The notes beneath the pieces are model-generated. The model was not told the DNA's origin, searched no databases, and saw only the letters and a list, made by a program, of their open reading frames with translations. Below are positions 5,730 through 28,130 of a stretch of DNA of 64,000 bases, one piece after another. The DNA lies in the IMG/VR virus record IMGVR_UViG_3300035670_000137, positions 12,782 through 76,781 of that record, one strand, 5' to 3'. This DNA is from a virus. Within the stretch, counting starts at the first letter, position 1. Each line of letters begins with the position of its first letter. Position numbers and translations under genes: made by a program.

Positions 5730-7208
5730 TTACGCTGCGTAATAACGTAGTGTAATGTCGTTTGTGTTTTCAATATCGTAAGCTGCGCCGGTTACACCGA
5801 TTAGATCGCTTGCAGTACCTTGACCACTAAATGTAATAGCGGTAGATACAACATCTGCAATATCAACACTTGGTACGCCAATAACTGCACCAGGCATTTC
5901 TAGCTCTACACGAGTACCGTTGCTACTACCACCTACTTCAACTTGCAACCAGTACTTGGTTTCAGCTGCTGTAGATATGTTGGTTAACATATTAGCTAGT
6001 AGGTCTGCTGCTTGGCCTGTTCCAGTACGTAGGTAAGCATTAATAGTACCAGATACTGCACGAGCACCAGTGAAGTAACCGATTGGAGTATTAACAGTAC
6101 CAATATTATTTGGAGTAACATAGTTAATATTGTTAGCAATCTGAATACTACCACCAGTTAGAGCAATAGTATAAGTAGCTGCACCAGTACCTACGCCACC
6201 TAGTGTAGACTTCAACTGTACCGTTGATAGCTTATTAGTGATATAAGCTGCATCAGTTACCTTAGTTGTAAAGTTACCAGCTAGGCCACCTGTTAAGGTA
6301 TTGCCTGACAATGTTACAGCTGAAGCTATGTTATTTAATAGTGTACCCTTGGCTGACCAAGCTACCATAGAGATAGCATCTAGACCGAAATCGATCTGGG
6401 CACTATCAATAGCGCAATTGTCAATAGTATACCATGCATTATCAACGTTAAAGATAAATCCAATAGGTTGTAGCTGGTTTCTATTAGAATGTGCAGAAGT
6501 TATTAAACCAAATGGTGTAGTAATGCCTGTAGCTGTTGACTGGTCATTCCAAGCAGATTGGGTAAACTTAACTGCTGAAGAAACTGTAACGTTAGCTACT
6601 GTAACTGCTGCTGATGCAGGAGGTGCTGTCAAATATGTACCAACTAAAGAAGAACTTGTGCTAGAAGTAACTTTAAATGGGGCATTATAAGGTGCTGCCG
6701 CTGTACCTGTTAGACCACGCATAGTATAAATACTATTAGCTGTTAAAGCCGTCATACCTGAACCACTTAAAGTAAAGGTAGGTGACGATGTAGTAGATCT
6801 AACTAAAGTAGTGGCTGGTGTACCACCTAATGTAGTTGCTGTAACTGTATTAGGAACACCATCAGTTGTTCCCTCAATACCTACGTAACCTAGAAGGGCA
6901 TTCCATAGAACTTTTTCTTCTGCTCCAACTGTAGCAGTATTATTCTTTGGACGAATATAGGTAGAGAAAGATATTTCAACTGGATTAAGAGCTGTATTGA
7001 ATGCTCTGGATCCACGAATAGGTGTAGTACCTGCTTCATTAATCTGAACATTGGTATTGTTAGTACCTTGAGAGAAGCTGAAACCATCTAGAACTTGAAT
7101 CTCCCAACAATTAGTTGTAGTAAAACCAGTGGTTTTAACTGCTCCAGTCGCTGTATTCAAGTTAGTAGTAACAAACACTCTACTATTTCTTGATAAATTA
7201 TATGCCAT
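5730..7208 (-). CDS. Major tail tube protein (T5 pb6-like)
   Basis: N-terminus SRNSRVFV...WEIQVLDGFSFSQ...RAFNTALNPVEISFSTYIRP resembles T5-like tail tube proteins; synteny. Confidence 0.9.
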   Translation of the reverse strand: MAYNLSRNSRVFVTTNLNTATGAVKTTGFTTTNCWEIQVLDGFSFSQGTNNTNVQINEAGTTPIRGSRAFNTALNPVEISFSTYIRPKNNTATVGAEEKVLWNALLGYVGIEGTTDGVPNTVTATTLGGTPATTLVRSTTSSPTFTLSGSGMTALTANSIYTMRGLTGTAAAPYNAPFKVTSSTSSSLVGTYLTAPPASAAVTVANVTVSSAVKFTQSAWNDQSTATGITTPFGLITSAHSNRNQLQPIGFIFNVDNAWYTIDNCAIDSAQIDFGLDAISMVAWSAKGTLLNNIASAVTLSGNTLTGGLAGNFTTKVTDAAYITNKLSTVQLKSTLGGVGTGAATYTIALTGGSIQIANNINYVTPNNIGTVNTPIGYFTGARAVSGTINAYLRTGTGQAADLLANMLTNISTAAETKYWLQVEVGGSSNGTRVELEMPGAVIGVPSVDIADVVSTAITFSGQGTASDLIGVTGAAYDIENTNDITLRYYAA

Positions 7209-7271: not shown

Positions 7272-7712
7272 TTAAAGAACTGGGTATTGAACCGTAATAT
7301 TTACTTCACCTACACCGTATGGCTCTAGGAGTCCCTCATCCGTAACTATGGAATTGATCAGAATTTCAGTAGTTTGAGCACCTGCGGTTTCAGTATCGTA
7401 TACTAGAGTTCGATTCGTATCGATAACCTTCTCTACATCTTCTAGAAGGTTTTCTAATTCTTGTGCGGGATTCTCTCCCTTTACGTACAACTTAAGGGAT
7501 ATACCAAGGAATCCCCATTTAAATCCGGCAGGAAGATACTCTCTAGTTTCTGAACCTGTGGACATGTAGATAGCTGGGAAATCTGATACTTCGTCCCAGA
7601 ACTTCAATTTAGGGTATGCATTACTAAATATATTAGTATTATACCCACCTGAACCATCTATTAACTTTAATTTCTCTGCCAATGCTTTGGCTATTGATGT
7701 TCTTACTGACAT
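7272..7712 (-). CDS. Tail terminator protein (T5 p142-like)
   Basis: MSVRTSIAKAL...FWDEVSDFPAI...ETREYLP...TDEGLLEPYGVGE; RBS GGAG before ATG 7712; synteny. Confidence 0.85.
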   Translation of the reverse strand: MSVRTSIAKALAEKLKLIDGSGGYNTNIFSNAYPKLKFWDEVSDFPAIYMSTGSETREYLPAGFKWGFLGISLKLYVKGENPAQELENLLEDVEKVIDTNRTLVYDTETAGAQTTEILINSIVTDEGLLEPYGVGEVNITVQYPVL

Positions 7713-8419
7713 ACTCTCCATCCTTTATGAGATTTTCTATGCCCATTTAGTACAGCACCTAAATTTGTATGTTGTAAGTTATGCTGCTTGGCAAATTCTT
7801 TTATATTATCAATATTTGTGAATACTTCTCCTGTTGGAGATATTAGATTAGGATTTATTTTTCCCAGTGCCTTTGAGGAAAATTTATGTCCTTTATTATG
7901 TATACCTTTAATACTTTTTAAGATATCATACTTATATGGATACACTTCCTCTAACCATTTATAGTTACTTAAACTGGCTATACTTCTAACTGTATACACA
8001 GATACAGCTGTAATGTCTGCAATATCAGATGCAGTCAAGTGCTGTTCATCTACTAAAAGATTAAATACTTTAAGGATTTGTTCGTTAGAATATTTGGAAC
8101 ATGGATTGTTAGTACCTCGTAAACCTAGGTGGCCCCGTCGTCCTCTTGACTCATCATATGTATTAAAACCATTTAATACACTATTAAATATATCTATAGC
8201 AATATTTTCATTCTCATCTAGTGTAGACTCAGTACACTCTAATAATATCTTTAGCTTAGGAATACCATACAGATTATATGCTTCCATTAACTTTTCTGAA
8301 CTTGTATTATTTTTAAGGCTATATTTATGTTGACCGAATCTATATTCTATATTATTAGATTGTCCTATATAAACTTTATCTGTACCTTCAAATTCTAAAC
8401 AATATATACCTATTGTCAT
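7703..8419 (-). CDS. GIY-YIG homing endonuclease (free-standing)
   Basis: GIYC...KVYIGQS...RF motif; C-terminal DNA-binding repeat (FAKQHNL...HKGW); likely start MTIGIY with AGGAG RBS. Confidence 0.9.
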   Translation of the reverse strand: MTIGIYCLEFEGTDKVYIGQSNNIEYRFGQHKYSLKNNTSSEKLMEAYNLYGIPKLKILLECTESTLDENENIAIDIFNSVLNGFNTYDESRGRRGHLGLRGTNNPCSKYSNEQILKVFNLLVDEQHLTASDIADITAVSVYTVRSIASLSNYKWLEEVYPYKYDILKSIKGIHNKGHKFSSKALGKINPNLISPTGEVFTNIDNIKEFAKQHNLQHTNLGAVLNGHRKSHKGWRVCQ

Positions 8420-8496: not shown

Positions 8497-9999
8497 TTAT
8501 AATGATACTGCCCTTAATCTATTACCGACTATACCAGCCGCTATTTCTCTAATAGATTTAGATATTAAAGTTTTGGGATCTCTGGCTGCTGAGTATTGTT
8601 TTCCACCCTCTGAAAAAGTAGCATATGGATTTCGCATCCAGCTGTAAAAAGCAGTTATCATTCCTTGCCTTGACTCGCTTAAACGCTCAATTTTTGCCGA
8701 TTCTGCAAGTCTGCCTGTTCTGTTTTGTAATCTAGGTTTGCCCATATTCTTTTTAATTTGCTGAGCAAGTGCCTGATTCAGCAGAGTCTGTAGATTGGCG
8801 AGACTGGATTGTTTAGGTTTTGGTTTAGGTATACTTTGCTTAGTTACTTTAGCAGTACCTGCGGTAGCTGCTACTTTTGGACCTTTTAACGGCTCTAGTT
8901 GTTTACTCTTAGGTATTTTCTTTTTAAGTACACTTCCTGGATCTATCTTACCATTTTTAATAATGGAAGCTACTCTATAGCCTATTTCTTCTTCTATAGA
9001 TCTAGAAAAATGTACATTAGCTAATAGTTTTACTAGCTCTGCTTTTAGTACACCCTCTACCTGGGATCCCCATTTAATTTGATTTTCTAGGGAATCCTGT
9101 GGTACTACTATATTTATATTTATTCCTGCACTAAGTACTGCTGCTCCAAAATCCTTAGATAGCTCAGATTCTATTAATGTACCATAAGAGTGAGTAGTCT
9201 GTAGTCTACCAATTAATGCAGATATTTCTTGTAAAGCCGAAGAGACTGTATTGGCACTACTTAGTTGAAAAAGTACACTATTAACTTCATCTGGCAGATC
9301 TATACTAGAAGCAACCCCTGTGGACTTTTCTACAAGTGCTTGTAATAGGGCTTCTGTAGCTCTCAACTGCACGTACAGGGGGGACTGCGCTTGATCTTTT
9401 AAAGGAGAATCTAATGGATGGTGTATAACTACGTGACCTAGGTCAATACCAGCTTCTTTGGTGGTACCACGCTGCCCAGACCTAAGTTCAATAGTAGTAT
9501 AGTCCGCTTTTACTCTGTCAATTAGCCCTCTAAATCTAACATTTAGGTCACTAGAGAATCTTTGGGCTTGGGCGAAATCTTTGAAAAAGACTCCATAAAT
9601 TTCCCCGTCCTTATATACAGGACAAGGAAATGGTAGTAATCCAAAAGTTTCATTATTTAGGGGTGTCTTAGAATCTAAAATAATACCGCTAGGTAGTTTA
9701 ATAGTACGTTGTGGTATAAATGTACCACCTATTAAATTAATTGGATTAGCTCCCCCATACTTACTGCTTTTTACTAGATCCTTTATCTGAGACATTAAAT
9801 ATTCTTTAGTATCTACTGTTTTCTTATTGATCTTTATAGTATCATACAGTTTGCTAAGTAGGGGGCCTTCTAATATCTTAGTAGATATAGGTATAAAATG
9901 TGGTTTACTATCTAGTCTAGCTAGTAGAGGATTTGCTCCGCTTTTTCTAGCTTTAATTATCTTTTCTTCGATATACTTTAATAAAGTATTCGCATCCAT
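8497..9999 (-). CDS. Tail completion protein (T5 p143-like C-terminus) with long N-terminal extension
   Basis: C-terminal LQNRTGRLAES...RNPYATF...RDPKTLISKSIREIA; synteny between head completion protein and terminator. Confidence 0.7.
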   Translation of the reverse strand: MDANTLLKYIEEKIIKARKSGANPLLARLDSKPHFIPISTKILEGPLLSKLYDTIKINKKTVDTKEYLMSQIKDLVKSSKYGGANPINLIGGTFIPQRTIKLPSGIILDSKTPLNNETFGLLPFPCPVYKDGEIYGVFFKDFAQAQRFSSDLNVRFRGLIDRVKADYTTIELRSGQRGTTKEAGIDLGHVVIHHPLDSPLKDQAQSPLYVQLRATEALLQALVEKSTGVASSIDLPDEVNSVLFQLSSANTVSSALQEISALIGRLQTTHSYGTLIESELSKDFGAAVLSAGININIVVPQDSLENQIKWGSQVEGVLKAELVKLLANVHFSRSIEEEIGYRVASIIKNGKIDPGSVLKKKIPKSKQLEPLKGPKVAATAGTAKVTKQSIPKPKPKQSSLANLQTLLNQALAQQIKKNMGKPRLQNRTGRLAESAKIERLSESRQGMITAFYSWMRNPYATFSEGGKQYSAARDPKTLISKSIREIAAGIVGNRLRAVSL

Positions 10000-10657: not shown

Positions 10658-12577
10658 TTACGACCAACGTAATGTAGATACGCCTAGACCGTTGACTGTA
10701 GAAACCTGGGTCATACCAGTACGCATAGAGGCTACTAGAACCTTACGCTGAGTTTCGACTAGATCTTGTGTATCGAAGCGAACGCCGCGCTGATTACCAA
10801 CAATGAAGTTAGCTGGAGCGATTGCAACGCCGCAGATGTTGGTAGTAGCGGTTGTAGTACCACCAGCCTTAGCACCGAATGCATCGGAAACTAGAACTGG
10901 AGTATTGCCAACCATACCAACTTGACCAGTTAGAAGAGTAGCTGCAGAGCCAACCTTATCCATTGTCTGGAATGAAGTATCATCTAATAGATCGAAGTAA
11001 ACATCGGTAGAAACAACGTAAACCATTTCAGCTGGGTCTAGGCCCCATACACCTAGATCCTTACGTAGTGAACGTAGGTTAGCGATAGAAGCAGCACCAG
11101 TATTTGTTGGGTTAACAGCAGAAGTTGCGTCGTAGATTGCTAGGCCCTTAACTGGGTCAGAACCAGAACCAGCACCTAGTAAGAATGCCTTATCGACAGC
11201 CTTAGCAACACGACGGATCATACCATCACGGATGATTGGTAGAAGAACTAATAGAGCATCTTCCTCTTCTTCGTATGCTAGGTACTCACGGGTAGCAACC
11301 TTGTATGCGTTTAGAGTGATTTCCTTTAGTTGATGAGTTTGAGCAGCACCAGCAGATTCAGTAGTACCGAAAGCTGTGTTAGCCATCCATGTAGCAAAAC
11401 CAGCTTCTGGGTTTACTGGGATAGTCATAACGTTAGTCTGCATATTGATGTTGCGTAGTAGAGGAGCAACAACTAGGCGACGGCGAATCTCAGATTCCAT
11501 GTTCATGGAAACTTCTAATTCCCATGTAGCGGAAGGAACGTGAGCACCGGCCTTCTCGATTAGGCCATGACCGAACTTAGTAGCTTCGATGGACTTGCCC
11601 ATGATCTTTGATAAGAAAACGGCCTTTTCACGATCTGCATAAGCAGACTTCTCGCTGTTCTTATCGCCAAACTGCATCTTGCTTTGCTGGATAGCAGCTA
11701 GTTCAGCAGCCTTCTCCTTAAGAGCACCTTCTAGACCTTCTAGAGCCTTCTTTGAGGACTCAGCTTGGTCGTTTAGACGCTTCTCAACTTCAGCAAGTAG
11801 CTTCTCAGCACCTGATTCCTTAACTTCGATAGCTGACTTAACAGCAGCTTCGATTTCTGCCTTGCGAGCAGCTTCAGCAGCAATAGCGGCCTTCTCGGCA
11901 GCTTGCTTTTCTTCTAGAGCCTTAGTAGCAGCGGCAGCGGCTTCAGCAGCGGTTTTAGCTAGAAGTTGTTCTAATTCCTTTGGATCCATATTCCATTCCT
12001 TTTTTGTATTGTCAGCACTCTGTGCAGGCGGCTGAATCTCTTTAGCTTCTTCCGTCTTTGCAGTGTACTGCTTTTTAAAATTACTATATTCCTCGTCATT
12101 TTCGAATGACTTAGATAGACTAAATATACTATCCTGGTTCGCAGGCACTGATACTACTGAAATTTCTAGAAGTTCTAGTTCTTTAATAATGAAAATGTCA
12201 GTTAGTGAATCATAAGTAGCGTCTTTAATGGCAAAGCCAACACTGAACGCCGTTAGTACACCATCTTTTACTAAATTAAATACGTCTTCAGCTGCTGCCG
12301 AAATACGTGCTTTTATCCATAAACCTTTATCATCAACCCTATACTCTTCCATTCTACCACAAGGACTATCATGGTCATGATAGGCAAGGATAATAGGATT
12401 TTTTAAGTAGTTTTCAAGAGCTCCAGTCCACGCCGTCATTGGGATGACGTCGCCTGCTCTATCTAAAGTAGTAGTATTTGCATATCCTTCTACATAAACA
12501 GATTCGGTATCCTCGGACTTAGATACGCTCTTGCTGAATTGCTGATTAAGGTATAGTATCTTATCTTTTATTTCCAT
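10658..12577 (-). CDS. Fused prohead protease + scaffold (delta) domain + HK97-fold major capsid protein
   Basis: N-terminal HK97-type protease motifs (GYANT..DRAGD, NPIILAYHD, FSVGF, LLEISVVSVPAN), then Ala/Glu/Lys coiled coil, then capsid domain, with no intervening stop. Confidence 0.92.
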   Translation of the reverse strand: MEIKDKILYLNQQFSKSVSKSEDTESVYVEGYANTTTLDRAGDVIPMTAWTGALENYLKNPIILAYHDHDSPCGRMEEYRVDDKGLWIKARISAAAEDVFNLVKDGVLTAFSVGFAIKDATYDSLTDIFIIKELELLEISVVSVPANQDSIFSLSKSFENDEEYSNFKKQYTAKTEEAKEIQPPAQSADNTKKEWNMDPKELEQLLAKTAAEAAAAATKALEEKQAAEKAAIAAEAARKAEIEAAVKSAIEVKESGAEKLLAEVEKRLNDQAESSKKALEGLEGALKEKAAELAAIQQSKMQFGDKNSEKSAYADREKAVFLSKIMGKSIEATKFGHGLIEKAGAHVPSATWELEVSMNMESEIRRRLVVAPLLRNINMQTNVMTIPVNPEAGFATWMANTAFGTTESAGAAQTHQLKEITLNAYKVATREYLAYEEEEDALLVLLPIIRDGMIRRVAKAVDKAFLLGAGSGSDPVKGLAIYDATSAVNPTNTGAASIANLRSLRKDLGVWGLDPAEMVYVVSTDVYFDLLDDTSFQTMDKVGSAATLLTGQVGMVGNTPVLVSDAFGAKAGGTTTATTNICGVAIAPANFIVGNQRGVRFDTQDLVETQRKVLVASMRTGMTQVSTVNGLGVSTLRWS

Positions 12578-18609: not shown

Positions 18610-19377
18610 TTATATACGGAAACATTCCGTTTCCCCTCCTCGATATTTAGGAAAAGTAGTTGGTACATACTTATACTCAGAGGTAGAATTTAACCACTTT
18701 TTTTCCAAGATAAGCGCTTCTGTCAGAGATAGACTAATATCTATTAATATCTCGTATGTTGGGTAACCTCTTAGTCGTTCTTTTATAGACCTTTGTGTTA
18801 TACCTGCTTTAAAGAAGTCATCTTCTAAAAAGTATACTAAGTATAAGATGGTCTCTCTATCTTTTATTAAAAATCCTTTTTTATTTGGGGGTACATTAGC
18901 TAACTCTAGAGCATTACTCCAGGTATTGAATCTATTTATGAAAGTATGCGCACATGGTATATTTTTATCTTTGATTCTATCAAAGTCTTCCATAGTGTAC
19001 ACTCCGCTACTGGCTAGAATCTCCAATAACTCTTCATCTGTCCATTTTTGTATACCACCAGAACTTCTAGTTGTTTTACCAGCTAAAGAAACTGCAGTAT
19101 TCCATGAGCCAAATCTATTTATGAAAGTATGCGCACATGGTACTCCATCAGTCCTATGTTTGTAGTTTGCCATTCTAGGATCTGGATCATTTTTTAAGAA
19201 GTTTATCAGTTCTTCGTCTGTGTATGTTTTATAAATTCGTTTTTGTAATCCAAGTCTTGCTCTTTTTACCTCTATAGATCCTTCTGATCTACCTAATTCT
19301 AAGCCTACCTGTTTATTGGTATAACCTTGTAAAAGAAATTCTTTTAATAAATCTTCTTCTTCTTGTGTCCATATCAT
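18610..19377 (-). CDS. Putative homing endonuclease with tandem HEG-associated repeats and C-terminal GIY-YIG-like domain
   Basis: Two TDEEL...PCAHTFINRF.(S/T)W..A..LA repeats; LYLVYF...KAGIT..SIKERL. Confidence 0.7.
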   Translation of the reverse strand: MIWTQEEEDLLKEFLLQGYTNKQVGLELGRSEGSIEVKRARLGLQKRIYKTYTDEELINFLKNDPDPRMANYKHRTDGVPCAHTFINRFGSWNTAVSLAGKTTRSSGGIQKWTDEELLEILASSGVYTMEDFDRIKDKNIPCAHTFINRFNTWSNALELANVPPNKKGFLIKDRETILYLVYFLEDDFFKAGITQRSIKERLRGYPTYEILIDISLSLTEALILEKKWLNSTSEYKYVPTTFPKYRGGETECFRI

Positions 19378-19684
19378 ATTAATTTAGTATAATTTATTAG
19401 TATAGGTAAAATTATAGCATATTAACTAAATATTGTCAAGTATATTTTTGTTGTATCCTACGAGATTAACAAAAATATTATTCAGTTTATAACACCTATT
19501 AGTATGTAGAATAATTCCTTTGGATACCGCGTGCGGGTGTGTCATTAGCTGGCACGGTTTATGCTAGTTTATTAACCGCCCTGGTCTATAAGCCTGGCTG
19601 ATGGGAGCATAGAAAACTTTGAATTGACATCGCAACCTGGCGCGACTACAATAACAACATCAGATAACGAAAGAGAAATAAAAA

Positions 19685-19840
19685 ATGTTTAACACTAATG
19701 GACACATGACACAAGATAACTTTAATGCTGTTGCATCTAAGGATCTGTTTCGTGCCATCTGGATTGCAAAGCACATGGGCGTAGCTGATACGGTTATGCG
19801 TGCGTGGGTTGCTGCTGTTCTTGCTGTTCTGAAAAAATAA
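19685..19840 (+). CDS. Small pre-early protein (51 aa)
   Basis: ORF MFNTNGH...AVLKK after promoter TTGACA(19624)...TACAAT. Confidence 0.6.
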   Translation: MFNTNGHMTQDNFNAVASKDLFRAIWIAKHMGVADTVMRAWVAAVLAVLKK

Positions 19841-19900
19841 TCTTGACTTCTGATGTTGCTTGTTCTATAATATAATCTCACTGATACGAAAGGAAACGCC

Positions 19901-20248
19901 ATGACTGCAAAGACTGTTAATTACACTCCTGAGCAAACCGCTGTTCTGATTTCGCGCTATGTTGATGAGAAGGTTAGCGTTGAGGCTATCGCTGCTGAAT
20001 TCGGCAAGAGCGTGCGTTCCATTGTTGCCAAGCTTTCGCGTGAAGGCGTATATAAGGCTAAGGAATACACCACGAAAAAGGGTGATGCTCCGGTGAAGAA
20101 GGATGCGCTTGCATCTGAGCTGATGCTGTTGGTTGGCTTGACTGAGGCTGAAGCTGATAGCCTTGGCAAGGCTAATAAGACTGCCTTGGCTAAGATTCTG
20201 GCTATCGTTAAGGCTGCAAAGATTAGCAATGCTAATGATGTAAGCTGA
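19901..20248 (+). CDS. T5 A2-like DNA-binding protein, copy 1
   Basis: NYT.EQT...IAAEFGKSVRSIVAKLSREGVY...DSL.KANKTAL, similar to T5 A2; own promoter at 19843. Confidence 0.75.
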   Translation: MTAKTVNYTPEQTAVLISRYVDEKVSVEAIAAEFGKSVRSIVAKLSREGVYKAKEYTTKKGDAPVKKDALASELMLLVGLTEAEADSLGKANKTALAKILAIVKAAKISNANDVS

Positions 20249-20313
20249 TGGATTATGGCACGGTTCCTGCTGTAAGCAGGGATCGTGCCAGGCTGAAAGA
20301 AAAAGGCCTTGAA

Positions 20314-20353
20314 AATCAAGGACTTAGGCCAGGGCCTGGGTAAGCTATTGATT
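20314..20353. promoter_or_regulatory. Inverted pair of IHF-consensus sites, copy 1
   Basis: AATCAAGGACTTA-14 bp-TAAGCTATTGATT; both halves match WATCAANNNNTTR. Confidence 0.7.
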
Positions 20354-20482
20354 TATAACACTTAATTCTGCGCCTACGACCATGGCACGGTTTTTGCTAT
20401 CCCTGGGCTTGTTACAATTTGTTACAATTAAGGGCTTGACTCTGCCATCCGATCAACTATAATTCAATCATAGCAAAACGAA

Positions 20483-20671
20483 ATGGAGATTGAAATGCTC
20501 AAGGTTATGTGTTCTGATTTGGCAACCGGTAATCGCAAGGTTTTCGCGGTTTGTGCAACTCCTAAAATGGCGCTTGGCATTCAAAAGCGTATGAATGAAC
20601 GGAATGAGGAAGCTACTAAATTTACTGGCAAAGCTATCCGTTTCGTTTATTTCGTTGTTCGTTCGAGGTAA
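20483..20671 (+). CDS. Hypothetical pre-early protein
   Basis: ORF after promoter at 20436; GGAG RBS. Confidence 0.6.
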   Translation: MEIEMLKVMCSDLATGNRKVFAVCATPKMALGIQKRMNERNEEATKFTGKAIRFVYFVVRSR

Positions 20672-20769
20672 ATCATGGAATACTTCATTGGCTTAATTGT
20701 TCTGCTGCTTGTTCCTGAGATCCTGAATTCGGTTATTGATGCCGTCAAAGAATGGGAAGAATTGACAAA

Positions 20770-21147
20770 ATGAAATACGACGTTGTTAAACTCCACGCTT
20801 TCGCTAATAAAATCGCCGTTGCTTTTTGGGATTATGCCAAGCAATATTGGCGTGAGGATATTGGCGAAATGCCGGAAATTCGGATGAATTCGCGATTGAC
20901 TAGCACTGCCGGTCGCGCTTTTCTTCAAGATAACTATGTCGATTTGTCTTGCTATCTGTTGCAGAATAACCCCGAATATTTCCGCATCGATACTATTCCA
21001 CATGAATTGTGCCATCATATTGCTTTCCGTATTTATGGTGATCGTGGTCACGGTAAGGGTTGGAAATATGTAATGAAATCGATGGGATTATCCGGTGATC
21101 GTTGTCATACGAGGCAAACTAAATATCAAGCTGAAAGGGCTAAATAA
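20770..21147 (+). CDS. SprT-like zinc metalloprotease
   Basis: RLTSTAGRA...TIPHELCH...GHGKGWK. Confidence 0.85.
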   Translation: MKYDVVKLHAFANKIAVAFWDYAKQYWREDIGEMPEIRMNSRLTSTAGRAFLQDNYVDLSCYLLQNNPEYFRIDTIPHELCHHIAFRIYGDRGHGKGWKYVMKSMGLSGDRCHTRQTKYQAERAK

Positions 21148-21464
21148 TGTCATACGTTACTATTAATAAACATGATGCTGGTATTCTGTTTAATACTGCG
21201 GAATTGGCTGCGTTGGCCGTATTTAATAAATATGAGCAAACGATTAAAGAATACTATGCTGATAGGATTACAACTAAAAAGATTCTGGGGATTAGCTTTA
21301 AGGTTGATAATTCTAGAATGCAGGACGAAATGTCAATAATTATTCCTAAATATAGGGTTAAAGAGACAATTGATAAGATTCGGCAATTGAATGCAATGCT
21401 TGAATACGCCGATGAAATGAATATTTCAACAAAAGACTGGGAAATTATTACTCGCTATATGTGA
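21147..21464 (+). CDS. Hypothetical protein
   Basis: Coupled ORF (TAATG overlap). Confidence 0.65.
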   Translation: MSYVTINKHDAGILFNTAELAALAVFNKYEQTIKEYYADRITTKKILGISFKVDNSRMQDEMSIIIPKYRVKETIDKIRQLNAMLEYADEMNISTKDWEIITRYM

Positions 21465-21491
21465 GCACTTACCAACCAAAAAGGTCTTTAG

Positions 21492-21531
21492 AATCAAGGG
21501 CTTAGCGGGGCCCTGGCCTAACCCCTTGATT
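21492..21531. promoter_or_regulatory. Inverted pair of IHF-consensus sites, copy 2
   Basis: AATCAAGGGCTTA-14 bp-TAACCCCTTGATT. Confidence 0.7.
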
Positions 21532-21732
21532 TATAAGGGGTTAGGCCAGAAACGCACCAACCTGGGGCGCGCCGATTTTACCACGGCCGGCGTGGAATGT
21601 CAATAGGCCGCGGCATCAAATGTTTTTATGGGCGCATAAAAATTACTTCGAAAAAATTTTTGCGAAAACGCTTGACAGCCTGGGGCAATGGGCGCATAAT
21701 ACGTTCATCAAATAACGAAAGGTAATAAACAA

Positions 21733-22206
21733 ATGTCAATTAAGCGTGTTCAGATTTACGATATGGATGGAACCATTGTGGATTCCACGCATCGTTATCG
21801 GACGATTTCGGAAAATGGAATCGAAAAGATTGATCTTGAATATTGGCGTGCTAATGAATATCGCGCAATGGATGATTCATTGCTTCCGCTTGCAGATCAA
21901 TATAAGGCTGATTTGGCTGATCCTGAATGCTATGTTATTATCGCAACTGCTCGCGTTCTGAATGAACCGGATATTAAATTCATTAATGAAATTCTCGGGA
22001 AACCGGATTATATTATTTCTCGGAAACCGGATAGCAGCATTTCCGGCGGTGTTTTAAAGGTTAATGGATTGCGTAAATTCTTTAATCTCAAGAATTTCAA
22101 AAATGCTGCGTTTGTGTTTTATGAGGATAATGCAGCATATCTGAAAAAGGTTTGCGATACTTTTAAAATCTCCGGTGTATATTGTCCGTCTAATCAGGGT
22201 CACTAA
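21733..22206 (+). CDS. HAD-superfamily phosphatase (possible nucleotidase, functional analogue of T5 Dmp)
   Basis: YDMDGTI motif I, ATAR motif II, FYEDN motif IV; pre-early location. Confidence 0.75.
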   Translation: MSIKRVQIYDMDGTIVDSTHRYRTISENGIEKIDLEYWRANEYRAMDDSLLPLADQYKADLADPECYVIIATARVLNEPDIKFINEILGKPDYIISRKPDSSISGGVLKVNGLRKFFNLKNFKNAAFVFYEDNAAYLKKVCDTFKISGVYCPSNQGH

Positions 22207-22210
22207 AATC

Positions 22211-22906
22211 ATGGCTAAAAAAGAATATTTCCTCATTGTTGATACTGAAACGACGGCGAATGATACTGTTTTCGATTTCGGTGCGGTTGTTTGTGATCGC
22301 AAGGGTAATATTGTGCAGAAATGCGCGATTATCGTAAAAGAGGAATTGGATAAAGATTTGTTCTTTGATCCGAAAGCGGAAGGCATTTGGTCGCGTCAAT
22401 ATGCGAATAAGAAAAAAGCCGGTTATCTGGAAATGATTAATAATGGTAATCGGATGGTCGCATCTGTTGCCGCTGTTAATCGTTGGCTTGAAAAGGTAGC
22501 GGCTAAATATAATCCGACTATTACCGCTTATAATTTCGCTTTTGATCGTGAGAAATGCGCGAAAACCGGAATTGATTTGTCGATGTTTAATTCTAGCTTC
22601 TGCCTTTGGCATTTGTCCTGCTCGATTTATGCTAAGACTAAGGCTTATCGGCAATTTATTCTCGATAATCATTATTTCGGTAATCGGACTAAATTCGGCA
22701 ATATGACTTACAAAACCAATGCCGAGGTTATGGCTCATTTTGTAACTGGTAATTATTCAGAAGAACCGCATACTGCAATTGAAGATGCTCAATATTATGA
22801 GCTTCCGATTCTGGTTTCTATTCTGAAAAAGAAAGGCTGGAAAAATAAAATTGGAACCGCTTATAATTGGAAAGATTACCAATTAAAAGATAATTTTAAG
22901 GCTTAA
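22211..22906 (+). CDS. DEDDh 3'-5' exonuclease
   Basis: VDTETT, AYNFAFD, HTAIEDA motifs. Confidence 0.85.
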   Translation: MAKKEYFLIVDTETTANDTVFDFGAVVCDRKGNIVQKCAIIVKEELDKDLFFDPKAEGIWSRQYANKKKAGYLEMINNGNRMVASVAAVNRWLEKVAAKYNPTITAYNFAFDREKCAKTGIDLSMFNSSFCLWHLSCSIYAKTKAYRQFILDNHYFGNRTKFGNMTYKTNAEVMAHFVTGNYSEEPHTAIEDAQYYELPILVSILKKKGWKNKIGTAYNWKDYQLKDNFKA

Positions 22907-22920
22907 TAGGAAAATATAAA

Positions 22921-23118
22921 ATGAATACTTTAATTTATCGTGAAAATGGGAATATTGAACAAAAAGAATTCAAATCAATATATGAGGCTGCAAACTGGGT
23001 AAAAGAAAATACCGGATATTTTGAGGCAAATGAGAATATTTTAATTGTTGATTGGAAAATGAAAGAACAGCAATGGTTCCAATTGCAATTAACTATTAAA
23101 TTGGTTGAATTAGAATAA
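22921..23118 (+). CDS. Hypothetical protein
   Basis: ORF with AGGA RBS. Confidence 0.6.
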   Translation: MNTLIYRENGNIEQKEFKSIYEAANWVKENTGYFEANENILIVDWKMKEQQWFQLQLTIKLVELE

Positions 23119-23273
23119 TATTATAAATATGGCTGATATACTATTTATAATCTGGATAATATATTGGCTATATATTGCCTTTATTGCTGAATAATATTAT
23201 AAATAGGTCTTATATAAGACCTATTTTTTCGGCCAGGATGTAAGCGAGCACTCACTCCAGAAAAAGCCTTTAG

Positions 23274-23313
23274 AATCAAGGACTTAGGTGGAGGCCCCGC
23301 TAACCCCTTGATT
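23274..23313. promoter_or_regulatory. Inverted pair of IHF-consensus sites, copy 3
   Basis: AATCAAGGACTTA-14 bp-TAACCCCTTGATT. Confidence 0.7.
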
Positions 23314-23488
23314 TATAAGGACTATTTTTCGACTATCAATGACTTACAGAACATGGCACGCTTCTTGCTTCAATCCTGGCTCATAAGAAATTTTTATGCT
23401 AGGATAGAAATTACTTCGAAAAAAGTTCTTGACAAGATGAAACGGTCGGAGCATAATATGCCCATGTTAAACGATAGGATTAATTGAA

Positions 23489-23698
23489 ATGATTGCTTGG
23501 ATTGGTACGATTTGCGGTATTATTGGTGCTTTGCTTGTTGCCGCTAATAATGGTCATCAGGACATTGGTTATATGTTCTTTTTGGTAGGTGCGGGTTTTT
23601 CTCTTGCATCATCGATCAAAGAAAAGCACAAAGCGAATATCGCTCTTTGGTCGGTTTTCTTTTCGATTAATGTTTATGGATTGATGCGTTATGTCTAA
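23489..23698 (+). CDS. Small membrane protein
   Basis: Three hydrophobic segments; follows promoter at 23429. Confidence 0.7.
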   Translation: MIAWIGTICGIIGALLVAANNGHQDIGYMFFLVGAGFSLASSIKEKHKANIALWSVFFSINVYGLMRYV

Positions 23699-24044
23699 GA
23701 AATTGGAAAATGAGGTTAAGCGATTCGCTTATGATTTTATGGAAAAAATGGGCTGGAAACCTGTCCATATTAATCGGATCAAAATCTCTAATATGCGTCG
23801 TTATAAGGGATTGTGTATAACTGAAGATTGCGAATCGGTTTATATCATCCTGAGCGAGCATACTCACGACAACAATAAGGATTTTTTCGCTACGCTTATT
23901 CATGAATTGATCCATGCACATTTGCTGATTAATAAGCATAAGTTTATGTCACATCATAAGCATGGCAAAATGTTTAAGCGTTACGCTAAAAAGGTTGAAA
24001 AGAAAACAAACGGATATTATACTGTCGAGGAAATCGTAAAATGA
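23691..24044 (+). CDS. SprT-like zinc metalloprotease, second copy
   Basis: TLIHELIH...HGKMFK. Confidence 0.75.
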   Translation: MSKKLENEVKRFAYDFMEKMGWKPVHINRIKISNMRRYKGLCITEDCESVYIILSEHTHDNNKDFFATLIHELIHAHLLINKHKFMSHHKHGKMFKRYAKKVEKKTNGYYTVEEIVK

Positions 24045-24357
24045 AAAAGACTTTCGAGGAATGGAAAAAGCAGGTTGATCTGGAAATCGAAAAGCGTGCT
24101 TATGGCTTGAATTCTGACGATCTGCCCGATTATGATTATTGGGCTGAATGGGAAGCCGGAGAATCTCCGGTTTTTACTGCAAAGGCTGCAATTCAAAACG
24201 CGAAGGATTATTAAAATGGAATTCGATCTAGTTGATGAAATGATGTGGGAAGATTTAATTGATTTTGAATCTCTTGAATCTGTCGGGCTTGAGGATTCAT
24301 ATTGTGGAGATACTGTTCCGGCGGCCCAGGCTGTATATTACTCGGAGGAAATGTGAT

Positions 24358-24582
24358 ATGATAAAACTCGTTATTTCTTTTGATGAATTCGAAGGCGTAT
24401 TAGGTCATCTTGATCCGCATTTGGATGCCGCTTGCCAAGCAATGGAAGCATATAACGATTGGCTTTGCGATTATCTGGAAAATCAATTCCCTGATTGGGA
24501 TATTGAACTGGCATTTGATTTTAATAATGCCGAATGGGATTTTGATAATACCGAGGTACATATTCCAATGATCGTGCAATAA
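24358..24582 (+). CDS. Acidic hypothetical protein
   Basis: MIKLVISF ORF with GGAGG RBS; Asp/Glu rich. Confidence 0.55.
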   Translation: MIKLVISFDEFEGVLGHLDPHLDAACQAMEAYNDWLCDYLENQFPDWDIELAFDFNNAEWDFDNTEVHIPMIVQ

Positions 24583-24614
24583 TCGTGCCAGCAAAACCCC
24601 GAAAAGTCCTTACA

Positions 24615-24654
24615 AATCAAGGACTTAGCGGGGCCCCTGGCTAACTCATTGATT
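24615..24654. promoter_or_regulatory. Inverted pair of IHF-consensus sites, copy 4
   Basis: AATCAAGGACTTA-14 bp-TAACTCATTGATT. Confidence 0.7.
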
Positions 24655-24837
24655 TTAAAGGCTTTTTTCGGCGTATGACAGCATAATATCCTGGGCTTGT
24701 CCAATCAAATTTTTCTATATGAGGATAGAAATTTTCGTGTTGCTTTGCCGAATCCGATTCTGTATAATTCTTTACATGGGATGACGAACTGGCTCAACGA
24801 AATCCCAAACCCTAAACCGAGCCACTAGGAAAATGCT

Positions 24838-25176
24838 ATGACCAAGACCGTCAATTATACTCCGGAACAAACCGTTGAACTCGTTTCCGCTTATACCGCG
24901 AATCCGTCGCAAGAAACTGTTGTGATGTTTGCCGAAAAGCTCGGCAAGTCGGTTCGGTCGATTGTTGCCAAACTCTCCCGCGAGGGCGTTTATAAGGCCA
25001 AGGAATACACGACCAAGAAGGGTGAAAAGCCGGTCAAGAAGGATTCGATGGCTGACGCTATCGGTGCGGTTCTCAAGCTGACCGAAGCTGAAACCGATTC
25101 GCTTGCGAAGGCTAACAAAACGGCTCTTGCCAAGATTTTCGAGGCTCTTGCCAATTCCAAGCCGATCGACGGCTAA
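24838..25176 (+). CDS. A2-like DNA-binding protein, copy 2
   Basis: Close paralogue of 19901-20248 (shared GKSVRSIVAKLSREGVYKAKEYTTKKG). Confidence 0.8.
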   Translation: MTKTVNYTPEQTVELVSAYTANPSQETVVMFAEKLGKSVRSIVAKLSREGVYKAKEYTTKKGEKPVKKDSMADAIGAVLKLTEAETDSLAKANKTALAKIFEALANSKPIDG

Positions 25177-25193
25177 AAGCAAAAAGCATACCA

Positions 25194-25219
25194 GATACCC
25201 GCTTCGGCGGGTATTTTTT
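25194..25219 (+). terminator. Rho-independent terminator
   Basis: ATACCCGC-TTCG-GCGGGTAT followed by T-run. Confidence 0.85.
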
Positions 25220-25336
25220 CGTCCCGAGCCAGGCGGGCACGATTCTTGCGCCCAAATTTTGTGCCAGCGCCTGGGCATGATAATTGCTAATAGGAATCGC
25301 ACGTAACCCATTGATTCACTAAAAATAAGCCTTTAC

Positions 25337-25376
25337 AATCAAGCACTTAGGGCCGGGGCCCCATAAACCTTTGAAA
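25337..25376. promoter_or_regulatory. Inverted pair of IHF-consensus sites, copy 5 (second half degenerate)
   Basis: AATCAAGCACTTA-14 bp-TAAACCTTTGAAA; further single sites at 25304, 25454, 25497. Confidence 0.6.
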
Positions 25377-26358
25377 GTCAAGACAATTTTTTCGAACCTT
25401 ATCAGGCACTTACCTCCGCCGACCATCACCTAAGTTGCCGCCGCCAGCGCGCGAATCAAGGACTTACGTCACGAACCTCCAAAAATTCATCCATCAAATC
25501 AACCACTTATACCACCATAAATCCGCAGCTCCGCTGCGCCTGAGTGCAAAAACAGTGCAAATCCTAAATTTTCGAGGGCTGCCCCAAGCCTTGTCAAGTG
25601 CAAAAATCTCAACCTGCCACCGCCGGACCGCTACACCAGTGCAGGTGCGAAAATTTTGAGGCCCCTGGCTGCGCCCATTATAAAGTGGGAAACCTGTGAG
25701 TGTCAAGACTAAATTTTCGAAGGTTGGACCTGGCGGCGAAATAAGTGAAGAACAATTAGTGCCTGGCTCGCGGCCTTCGCCGCAATTTGGCACGATTTAT
25801 TTTCCATAGCGGCAATTTGGCACGATTTAGGGTCAAATTCAAACAATTTAGGACAATTTATGCGATTTGTGCGCTTTTTGCGACATAAGTACCGAATTTG
25901 GCACTTGTGCTCGGCGTGGTGGGCCGGATTTTAACCTATTCCAAACCGCTTCAGGCTTGAAATTTCTGTCTTGATATAAAAAACCGGAGCGACTATAATA
26001 TAAAAATGTTGTGAAGCCCTGGCACTTTGGGAAACAATAAAAAATTTAGACTTGCGACACGGAGTTAAAGCGAATATAATATTTACATGATGTGAGAGAG
26101 GGGAACCAAGATGGATGAGGATAGAATCACTTCTTTTTGGTATGATACGTCGCTTGAATGGGGCGTTACCGTAGCAGAAGCATCAGATGAAAATGTTGTG
26201 TGTAGCATAGTAGCAGCGATGTTTGAAGACGATGTACCGTTTTAACATCCTGACCCTAAATTGTAGCAAACCGTAGCAAATTGTTTTACACATTATCAAT
26301 ATTGGCTGAGGACTGCGAAGCCAAACAACCAAAACCAAATCAAGAAAGGCAGCAAATT

Positions 26359-26658
26359 ATGAACACGAAAGTCCAAAACTACTCCGCCGAAACCGTTGAA
26401 AAGATGGTGTTCGATTACAAAGCTGGTGTTGCTGTTGAGCAAATCGCTCAGGAAATCGGGAAGTCTGTCCGGTCTGTTGTGGCCAAGCTCTCTCGCGAAG
26501 GTGTCTACGTTGCTAAGAAGTCTGCTGCGAAGGCAGATGGCAAGGTCACCAAAGCTGATCTGATCGCTAAGATCGCCGCGAAGTTCGAAGTTGAGGCGGA
26601 AGTCCTGGCCTCCCTCGAAAAGGCTACCAAGGAAGCTCTCGAAGTTCTGGCAGCTTAA
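26359..26658 (+). CDS. A2-like DNA-binding protein, copy 3
   Basis: NYSAE...GKSVRSVVAKLSREGVY...ASLEKATKEAL. Confidence 0.8.
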   Translation: MNTKVQNYSAETVEKMVFDYKAGVAVEQIAQEIGKSVRSVVAKLSREGVYVAKKSAAKADGKVTKADLIAKIAAKFEVEAEVLASLEKATKEALEVLAA

Positions 26659-27046
26659 TCAAATTTAGGGTCGGGTGAGCAAAAGATCCTGACCCTAAAT
26701 TGCTACATGGGCGAAGTGAGAAATTGCTTTCCCTAAACCGCAGCAGGTTGATCACCAAGTGACCGGCTTGCTGCGATTAGAGTAAGAGCAATAAGTCTTA
26801 GGTGCGTAGAGACTATAAAAGTGACGCATACCGTAATGGGGAAAACATGTAGAAATTTTACATTAACGAAACCCGTCCTAGTGCTCACTAGAGATTTAAC
26901 TGTTAGAGCTATGAGCAAGCTAACTAACGTCGGAGAAAGTAACCGACCCTAAATTGCAGCATATCGAAAGGTATGCTGCATTTTTTGTATCTACTCATTT
27001 CACCAAAGAAAAAGCCAGGTCTGATTTCTCAGCCTGGCTTTTTTGC

Positions 27047-27370
27047 TTACTGTTTCAATTCTCTTATACGTTGTTCCATCAGTATAAGTGCTGTTTTTGT
27101 TACCTTTTCACAAGATTCCAGCAAATCGATATTAATATCAAGAAGTTTTGCAATCCTCTCGATATACTCCTCTTTCTTAACTGGAGTTTCGCCACGCTTG
27201 TTGAGGTACTCTTTCCTCTTATAAACACCTAGCGAGCTTAACTTAGCAATAACTGAGCGAACTGGAACAACTTCAGTATCAGTAGATAACTTAGCAGCTA
27301 ATTCCTCTACAGGAATACCTGCTTTATAATCTTCTATTAATTTATTTACGATCTCTAAAGTGTATTTCAT
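27047..27370 (-). CDS. A2-like DNA-binding protein, copy 4
   Basis: YKAGIPVEELA...VRSVIAKLSSLGVY...ESCEKVTKTAL. Confidence 0.75.
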   Translation of the reverse strand: MKYTLEIVNKLIEDYKAGIPVEELAAKLSTDTEVVPVRSVIAKLSSLGVYKRKEYLNKRGETPVKKEEYIERIAKLLDINIDLLESCEKVTKTALILMEQRIRELKQ

Positions 27371-27371
27371 A

Positions 27372-28130
27372 TTAGATATCCCATTCTAATATAGTTTTAG
27401 GTGCTTTTACTTCAGTATCAATTAAGGAGGAAGGCATTTCATCCCAATTACTCGGATTTAGTACCATATACTCATGTCTAATTGTAGGATGAGCAAGCCA
27501 TACCTGAGTTAACATAATTTTAGCCAACCTGGGTAAAGCATCGAATTCTTCTACACCGGTATGCGTTATAGTAGTAGTGCTAACAGGATTTTTGACTGTT
27601 CCAGCCTTATCTCCTGTTTTAATTGTAGATCCAATTACTCGTAGTTCTAGTAGTTCCTCTTTAGTATAGCTTGGACATACACAATACATAGCATTATATA
27701 TATCTGGATCTACTAAACTCTTAAAGTTTACCCATTTAGAGTAGGGAATGGATTGATACTTCTTAAAGGCAGCTAAAAATAAAGGAACGAGAGCACTATA
27801 AGGCAACATATCCGGGCTAGTAGCTTTTACACCGGCGGGGATAATAATACCTCTAGGACTACTCATCAAGTATAGTAACAAACCTTTAAACCATTCTGAC
27901 CCTAAATCGCAGCGAGTTATTGCTTGCCTAACAGTTAGTACTCCATCATACATACCATCAGCATTCTTAACTGGTGTAACTTTACCCAGATAAGCTAAAG
28001 CTTGAGGTAGTGCCCAACTAGAATACTTTGCGAAGGATTTGCGTTGATTAGTACCTTCTGGACCATCTTCATAAACTAACTGAAAGGGTACCTCTTTTAA
28101 CTCTCTTTTGCTAAAACTAAAAGTTGCCAT
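27372..28130 (-). CDS. Hypothetical protein
   Basis: 252-aa ORF directly upstream of A2-like copy 4; minus-strand promoter near 28452-28480. Confidence 0.75.
   Translation of the reverse strand: MATFSFSKRELKEVPFQLVYEDGPEGTNQRKSFAKYSSWALPQALAYLGKVTPVKNADGMYDGVLTVRQAITRCDLGSEWFKGLLLYLMSSPRGIIIPAGVKATSPDMLPYSALVPLFLAAFKKYQSIPYSKWVNFKSLVDPDIYNAMYCVCPSYTKEELLELRVIGSTIKTGDKAGTVKNPVSTTTITHTGVEEFDALPRLAKIMLTQVWLAHPTIRHEYMVLNPSNWDEMPSSLIDTEVKAPKTILEWDI

Follow-up and report, generated by a model that had tools for sequence, protein, structure and literature searches.

Clustered sigma-54-type sites interleaved with IHF-type boxes in the putative pre-early DNA of an uncultured T5-like phage

A 64,000-nt window of an uncultured phage genome from a subsurface metagenome study (bases 12782–76781 of the linear 76.8-kb IMG/VR record IMGVR_UViG_3300035670_000137, estimated to be 73% complete) carries eight elements resembling bacterial −24/−12 promoters between positions 19550 and 25287. 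The sigma-54 holoenzyme forms a stable closed complex on such sites and does not initiate transcription without an ATP-driven activator. The host sigma-54 (RpoN) holoenzyme is probably the reader of the eight elements, whether they serve for occupancy or as promoters, as is suggested by their match to the host consensus, their exact spacing, their conservation profile, their co-clustering with boxes of the integration host factor (IHF) type and their recurrence in unrelated phages. The narrower reading that we favour, with a probability of roughly 0.45, is that the elements are holoenzyme recognition sites kept by selection which would act mainly by being occupied.

Pattern, spacing and enrichment of the sites

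The pattern KGGCAY-N6-TGC, which provides the GG-N10-GC spacing, has nine matches in the window against an expectation of 1.24 +/- 1.25, and none of 100 shuffled sequences reached nine. The original prediction, made from the letters of the window, had the GG-N10-GC spacing right but wrote the intervening stretch as N7; KGGCAY-N7-TGC has just two unrelated matches, which is the chance level, and N6 is the correct form. All eight sites that it listed are present within 1 nt of where it placed them, with the two minus-strand sites at 20276–20290 and 24576–24590. The ninth match, at 22607, is weak, lies inside an open reading frame (ORF) and is probably due to chance. The exact sequence TGGCACG-N5-TGC is found six times in the whole record, always inside 19550–24590, with near-copies at 25235 and 25273. 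When the GG and GC doublets were held fixed and up to two mismatches were allowed, 9 of the 12 matches in the genome fell within 7.5% of its length (P about 1.3e-8), and shuffled sequences gave 3.1 matches, so that the predicted cluster is enriched both over shuffled sequence and over the rest of the genome. In a spacing control covering k = 2 to 11, the phage's own genome gave six matches at k = 6, the sigma-54 spacing, and 0–1 at every other value; elsewhere, too, only k = 6 was enriched, both in the related loci described below (32 matches) and in Vibrio phage D239 (4 versus 0–1).

The GG and GC doublets are exactly 10 nt apart in all eight sites, and TGGCACG-N4-TTGC is exact in three. Across the copies, TGGCACG and the bases T−14, G−13 and C−12 are constant and the 4-nt spacer is variable, as would be expected of elements that sigma-54 recognizes. 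The motif TGGCACnnTTnTTGC is the one reported from genomic SELEX (systematic evolution of ligands by exponential enrichment) for binding of the E. coli sigma-54 holoenzyme alone, with no activator present (PMC8743547). Exact matches to it occur at 20383(+), 23354(+) and 24576(−), against about 0.007 expected in the genome; three further sites have one mismatch. Six of the eight sites run with the genes, and 20276(−) and 24576(−) point away from them, in line with the earlier remark that some sites face away from genes.

Placement of the sites among genes, IHF-type boxes and sigma-70 promoters

The record has a T5-like layout, in which large late genes are encoded on the minus strand as far as 19377, small genes on the plus strand form a block from 19685 to 25176, and a cluster of 24 tRNA genes lies beyond the gene-free, repeat-rich spacer (25177–26359) that closes this block on the right. 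We infer from its position and layout that the small-gene region is pre-early; it is also probably the part that enters the cell first.

Three of the sites have a gene on the same strand 74–109 nt downstream of the predicted start. The site at 19550–19564 (+; TGGCACGGTTTATGC) is intergenic and co-directional with genes, has a single mismatch to TGGCACnnTTnTTGC (A at −15) and lies 60 nt ahead of the −35 element of the sigma-70 promoter at 19624. The site at 20383–20397 (+; TGGCACGGTTTTTGC), an exact copy of the holoenzyme-alone consensus, has an IHF-type box 30 nt upstream of it and, 39 nt downstream, the −35 element at 20436; its predicted start is 74 nt ahead of the ATG at 20483. The exact consensus at 23354–23368 (+; TGGCACGCTTCTTGC) follows the IHF-type box at 23334 by 8 nt and precedes the −35 element at 23429 by 61 nt; the boxes upstream of these two sites are predicted by consensus. 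No gene in the same orientation lies downstream of 20276(−), 24576(−), 25235 or 25273, and 20256 is ambiguous in this respect. The sites at 20256–20270 (+) and 20276–20290 (−) overlap face to face at an offset of 20 and form a 35-bp palindrome that starts 8 nt past the stop of ORF 19901–20248. Read as plus-strand RNA, this palindrome is predicted to fold into a 16-bp hairpin (−28.6 kcal/mol, z −6.3) with two G-U pairs, and both differences between its arms are G-U compatible on the plus strand only. The exact consensus at 24576–24590 (−; TGGCACGATTATTGC) overlaps the stop codon of ORF 24359–24582, points antisense into that ORF and is separated by 25 nt from the left IHF-type box of the next palindromic repeat. 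The element at 25235–25249 (+; GGGCACGATTCTTGC, then GCC) is the homologue of a site found in relatives of the phage (site A, TGGCACGATTCTTGCGCC) and comes directly behind a terminator hairpin at 25195–25219. It is followed at 25273–25287 (+; GGGCATGATAATTGC) by a degenerate homologue of the relatives' site B, and the counterpart of their facing site C has decayed in the window. Both 25235 and 25273 face approximately 1.1 kb that contains no plus-strand gene. Within this spacer, the two −24-type half sites TTGGCACGATTTA that had been noted at 25787 and 25817 are indeed present (25787–25829, +); they belong to a 26-nt direct repeat and have no GC at −12, and more TGGCAC words occur at 25261(−), 25899 and 26020.

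Other short words accompany the sites. Tandem TGTTACAA words stand behind the 20383 site (20398–20430), and in relatives, for example in locus L067 at about 11660–11700, the same words lie between a backward promoter and site A. The word CCTGG(G)CT recurs 5–25 nt past plus-strand sites.

The IHF consensus WATCAANNNNTTR is matched 14 times in the window against 5.75 expected, and 13 of the 14 boxes, all of them consensus matches only, are within 20314–25509; the interleaving of IHF pairs with the sigma-54-type sites in the original prediction is therefore real. The intergenic gaps share parts, among them a palindrome of about 72 nt, present in five copies, in which two inverted IHF-consensus boxes 27 nt apart surround a GC-rich core. 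The copies are found at 20301–20372 (boxes 20314+ and 20341−), 21479–21550 (21492+ and 21519−), 23261–23332 (23274+ and 23301−), 24602–24673 (24615+ and 24642−) and, as a partial copy, 25324–25374 (boxes 25304− and 25337+, with more at 25454 and 25497). The third and fourth copies have the order A-run, long hairpin, U-run and fold like two-way terminators, and the second has no adjoining sigma-54-type site and is next to a backward sigma-70 promoter (21603–21575). To the left of the palindrome, sigma-54-type sites occur in either orientation (20256+ with 20276−; 24576−; 25235+ with 25273+), whereas those to its right aim at genes (20383+ and 23354+). The minus-strand sites 20276− and 24576− keep a constant distance of 24–25 nt to the left IHF-type box.

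The original prediction also held that each gene block already has a sigma-70 promoter. This is so for five blocks, with matches at 11 of 12 positions, at 19624–19652 (the first small-gene block), 19843–19871, 20436–20463, 21672–21700 and 23429–23457, all on the plus strand; for the block starting at 24838, only a weaker −35/−10 pair was recognized by eye. Promoters directed backward, opposing the small-gene block, are found at 25677–25706 in the gene-free spacer (12/12), at 21603–21575 (11/12) and at 19439–19411 (12/12). The same backward cassette (GCGCC...ATTATA...TGTCAA on the plus strand) is kept in relatives, where 46 nt separate it from site A on its right.

The products of the small-gene block include two SprT-like proteins of the zinc-metalloprotease type, encoded at 20752–21147 (Pfam PF10263, E = 6e-19) and 23691–24044 (E = 5e-11), a HAD/PNK-like protein, a DnaQ-like exonuclease and two paralogues (115 and 112 residues) whose N-terminus resembles a helix-turn-helix. 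Just past the spacer (26360–26658) another paralogue, the third, with 99 residues, is encoded, and GACCCTAAATTG repeats and a gene-free stretch come after its gene (26360–27010). A conserved non-coding stretch of about 480 nt that looks structured lies behind the homologous paralogue gene in loci L038 (6320–6800) and L006 (about 6330–6680); an Rfam scan of window positions 19000–27500 and of L038 5300–7200 returned no family. The large terminase shares 49% identity with its counterparts in Vibrio T5-like phages. As to the pre-early A1/A2/dmp set that T5 carries on a long terminal repeat, only a HAD/PNK-like gene is present here: no A1 homologue was found in the record, the 115-residue protein has no similarity to T5 A2, and the linear record has no end repeats.

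Related loci, other phages and the T5 injection stop region

No match to the region emerged from a megablast search of 50,697 phage records. With the 115-residue protein as query, 78 related loci were retrieved from IMG/VR; their proteins are 55–66% identical to those of the window, and the nucleotide identity, approximately 65–75%, is confined to coding DNA. In these loci, 41 sigma-54-type sites have no more than one mismatch, where 2.3 would be expected, and nearly all of them are at the position equivalent to 25235. Site A (TGGCACGATTCTTGCGCC) is kept in 24 of the 78 loci at the left edge of the gene-free repeat spacer, often with site B 26 nt downstream of it and with site C facing B at offset 20. 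The face-to-face offset is conserved at 18–20 nt, and it is 20 in L012, L015, L022 and L031 as in the window pair at 20256/20276. Sites B and C of L012 face each other with spacers that lack complementarity, and no hairpin can form, which argues that the symmetry is that of two protein sites and not of a hairpin. The homologous intergenic gaps of the relatives are short and lack the dispersed sites of the window. The sites are thus conserved yet patchy, and this distribution suggests that they are accessory and no core part of the entry mechanism.

Sites of the same type occur in cultured phages, and in D239, Vibrio phage Ceto and Pectobacterium phage My1 they are confined to pre-early or terminal-repeat DNA. 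D239 has six (four perfect), all within 102.3–106.2 kb and co-directional with the flanking gene blocks, in and beside a gene-poor spacer by A2-, A1- and dmp-like genes and with DnaA-type boxes alongside. Ceto carries sites in both copies of its terminal repeat and My1 one perfect site per terminal repeat, and Vibrio phage JSF10 has one perfect and one single-mismatch site less than 3 kb apart. Among the matches listed in IMG/VR (at least 120 contigs with one exact 15-mer, many of them unrelated), at least 40 contigs carry three or more sites. The same matches include dense banks in gene-poor DNA, with 25 sites in 6.5 kb in L119 (1–6511 of a 147.5-kb record), 17 sites in L126 (6500–8600), face-to-face pairs every 43 nt in L179 (3560–3780) and back-to-back pairs at offset 41 in L089 (8200–11900). 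No T5-like terminase was found in the record of L119. The recurrence of the motif in distant phages and in contigs without a T5-like terminase points to a universal host factor rather than to a phage protein specific to one lineage.

The gene-free spacer of the window is the positional equivalent of T5 Repeat Region 3, which contains the injection stop signal (iss). Window spacer and T5 iss have only the 10-mer GTGCAAATCC in common; BLAST gave no significant alignment between them, only an 11-nt match at chance level, and homology beyond the 10-mer is not claimed. For the relatives there is direct sequence evidence that their spacers are iss equivalents: the 17-mer GAATCATTNTCATTTGC is common to the injection-stop region of T5 (9661–9677) and to the gene-free spacers of five uncultured relatives (L043 11562–11578, L060 10672–10688, L061 11522–11538, L066 9193–9209 and L070 1430–1446), and in the first four of these it sits 16–31 nt to the right of site A. 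A T5-type nick site was considered for the conserved GCGC in the TTGCGCC of site A and dropped, the BF23 paper containing no nick consensus.

Binding sites for other host proteins are found in the same kind of DNA. DnaA boxes are the only ones discussed in Davison's analysis of the T5 repeat regions (bioRxiv 10.1101/866236), and four DnaA-type boxes lie in the site A spacer of the relative L074, as in T5. There is no excess of DnaA boxes in the window (7 versus 6.1 expected). The T5 iss region also has a perfect LexA-type SOS box (CTGT-N8-ACAG, 9411–9426) beside its DnaA boxes. In the pre-early spacer of D239 there are three perfect LexA boxes (4476–4491, 7573–7588 and 8174–8189 in locus L201) against 0.23 expected, each of them close to a sigma-54-type site. 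To judge by these motifs, T5-like phages seem to gather sites for several host DNA-binding proteins in their first-entering spacers.

Occupancy, transcription and other explanations

We infer that the sigma-54 holoenzyme is the binder and that occupancy, more than transcription, is the main effect of the binding. A closed complex needs an activator and the phage encodes none as far as its record extends: no Sigma54_activat (PF00158) domain was found in 11 phage records, consisting of the phage's own, 73% complete, and ten that bear sites or are related, 5 of the 11 being about complete. No phage-encoded sigma-54 DNA-binding domain (PF04552) turned up in the search, nor was a recurrent activator-type upstream site recognised near the sites. 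The overlap of the face-to-face pairs, the tandem sites 26 nt apart, which are too close for joint occupancy, and the sites that face gene-free DNA favour occupancy as well. Under this reading, the sites would retain a polymerase that adjacent IHF-type boxes bend into position, both where pre-early transcription units meet their borders and where the gene-free iss-like spacer has its left edge. The sites at 19550, 20383 and 23354 would be auxiliary promoters that a host activator could fire, for blocks that also have sigma-70 promoters. Occupancy might then insulate blocks from one another, draw off sigma-54 after genome replication has set in, or take part in the pause of DNA entry.

The suggestion of the original prediction that these are parking or decoy sites stands to the extent that the elements are not due to chance and that several of them, namely the facing pair, the antisense site 24576− and the gene-free sites 25235/25273, are not ordinary gene promoters; the tandem and facing sites in the gene-free spacers of relatives, the lack of an activator in the 11 records and the fit to an activator-less consensus are further points for it. 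A purely decoy role is made less likely by 19550, 20383 and 23354, which are co-directional with genes and 39–61 nt upstream of sigma-70 promoters, the last two being also 8–30 nt downstream of IHF-type boxes; such an arrangement is normal for enhancer-dependent promoters. The effects that the original prediction named for parking, namely titration of sigma-54, damping of the psp or rtc responses and a roadblock on incoming DNA, are hypothetical. Its statement that nothing of this kind had been described for T5-like phages agrees with our literature searches, in which no publication on sigma-54 with T5-like phages was found.

Several observations weigh against the favoured reading. Three sites have a complete promoter anatomy, and it may be that they mainly serve transcription. 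In site A the conservation spans 18 nt and takes in the spacer, beyond the known need of sigma-54, although that spacer does fit the consensus nnTTn. Since the half sites at 25787 and 25817 have no −12 element, something may read TGGCACGATT alone, and the pair at 20256–20290, given its perfect RNA hairpin, could be an RNA element. Sites do not rise above chance in T5 itself, in the about complete relatives G001 and G002, in Klebsiella phage Shiner or in Proteus phage RP7, and with so patchy a distribution an essential role in DNA entry is less likely.

That the elements are conventional enhancer-dependent promoters, fired by a host bacterial enhancer-binding protein acting on sigma-54 holoenzyme with the help of an IHF bend at the palindromic repeat, we consider unlikely. 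They would offer a second, condition-dependent route for expression of the pre-early blocks or, from the gene-less and minus-strand sites, produce non-coding or antisense RNAs. Such a function is consistent with the direction of six of the eight sites, with the distances of 19550, 20383 and 23354 to sigma-70 promoters and start codons, with the classical order of core, IHF box and upstream site at 20383 and 23354 and with the co-directional sites of D239; the facing pairs, however, overlap each other's start sites, and sites A/B of the relatives, like 25235/25273 of the window, face about 1 kb of gene-free repeats. The absence of an activator gene from the 11 records and of an identified recurrent activator-type site also speaks against it, as do the near-consensus sigma-70 promoters that the blocks already possess (the 24838 block being weaker, by eye) and the homologous gaps of close relatives, which have no sites.

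It is quite unlikely that the likeness to sigma-54 sites is incidental and that a phage DNA-binding protein (such as the 115-, 112- and 99-residue helix-turn-helix paralogues), another host protein or RNA hairpins with a processing or stabilising role account for the elements, although the palindromic copies and the half sites may have a different binder or act as RNA. The fixed offset of the palindromic copies, the strong hairpin at 20256–20290 with its arm differences tolerated on the plus strand only, half sites devoid of a −12 element, the 18-nt constancy of site A and the paralogue genes that adjoin site clusters here and in relatives would all be accommodated. Yet 11–12 specified positions of an independently defined host consensus are matched with exact spacing, most copies are single and non-palindromic, and the facing spacers of L012 cannot form a hairpin. 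The motif moreover occurs in phages of Vibrio and Pectobacterium, as well as in contigs that lack a T5-like terminase, and the small proteins of all these differ; the 115-residue protein does not resemble T5 A2.

Recombination between co-occurring phages does seem to share and shuffle palindromic cassettes. In sequencing runs the sequence is listed for four entries, all of them DNA contigs of one subsurface/soil study, one possibly from the source sample, and for no RNA entry. These same-study contigs, which carry no end, start or strand information, attach the palindromic modules to other flanks (at 20298–20299, 23286–23288 and 25260–25269), and depth is raised over the modules. That the motif has no function of its own and merely spread within such a repeated intergenic cassette is nevertheless highly unlikely, even though this phage alone has the dispersed copies, which are missing from the homologous gaps of relatives, a pattern search of IMG/VR found the 72-nt palindrome in no other contig and the changed flanks suggest shuffling, for the copies differ in spacers and flanks and retain exactly the positions critical for sigma-54, site A is kept across phages whose proteins are only 55–66% identical, and independent clusters exist in other genera.

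Bacterial sigma-54 promoters with IHF-assisted activation, such as those of the NtrC-dependent class, resemble the phage elements in the GG-N10-GC spacing, in the IHF boxes directly upstream of several copies and in the three copies that are co-directional with and upstream of genes; the phage has the full extended consensus in three copies and a near-consensus in five. They differ in that the phage has neither an activator gene nor a recognisable upstream activator site, that its copies are also arranged face to face, in tandem, antisense or with no gene ahead where sigma-70 promoters are already present, and that the elements belong to the entry-type DNA of a virulent phage and not to a cellular regulon. 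In E. coli, 38% of the in vitro peaks of sigma-54 holoenzyme lie inside ORFs (PMC8743547). Those non-promoter sites are alike in being high-affinity sites of the holoenzyme type, not placed for driving genes and dependent on the stability of the closed complex; unlike them, the phage sites lie between genes, form a cluster (eight in 5.7 kb), have IHF-type boxes as partners and are conserved from phage to phage, a combination that argues for selection on binding itself.

The Repeat Regions and iss of the T5 left terminal repeat are likewise a gene-free spacer, rich in repeats and palindromes, that ends a small-gene block and holds consensus sites for host proteins. T5, in contrast, has no sigma-54 sites above chance, and the window has neither an excess of DnaA boxes nor an A1 homologue; the terminal repeat and two-step entry of T5 are putative for the present phage. 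The RIP/RIB-type bacterial interspersed mosaic elements (BIMEs) of E. coli are extragenic palindromes with an IHF site at operon ends. These too are repeated, hairpin-forming elements with an IHF consensus between transcription units, but the order is reversed in the phage, where two inverted IHF-type boxes surround a GC-rich core and are coupled to sigma-54-type sites.

Among bacterial holoenzymes, that of sigma-54 alone combines tight binding to its sites with silence until an ATPase activator intervenes. A virulent phage with eight sigma-54-type sites and no activator would in some way exploit that silence. A wider proposal, which we regard as doubtful, is that some T5-like and unrelated phages build arrays of high-affinity, activator-less sigma-54 sites in their first-entering DNA, together with IHF, DnaA and LexA sites, and so capture host proteins; the parked closed complexes would be a sink for sigma-54 and polymerase, or fixed roadblocks or anchors that insulate pre-early units and help to time the pause between the two steps of entry. 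Such a use of the inability of sigma-54 to start by itself would be one not described before. If the sites fire, pre-early expression would be wired to a stress or nutrient signal of the host; if they are silent, they would be the first example of a phage genome in which sites for parking host polymerase are selected. The cultured carriers D239 (Vibrio crassostreae), Ceto (V. harveyi) and Pectobacterium phage My1 make the question testable, and either outcome bears on the old question in T5 of what role the gene-free repeats of the first-step transfer have and how the injection pause is set.

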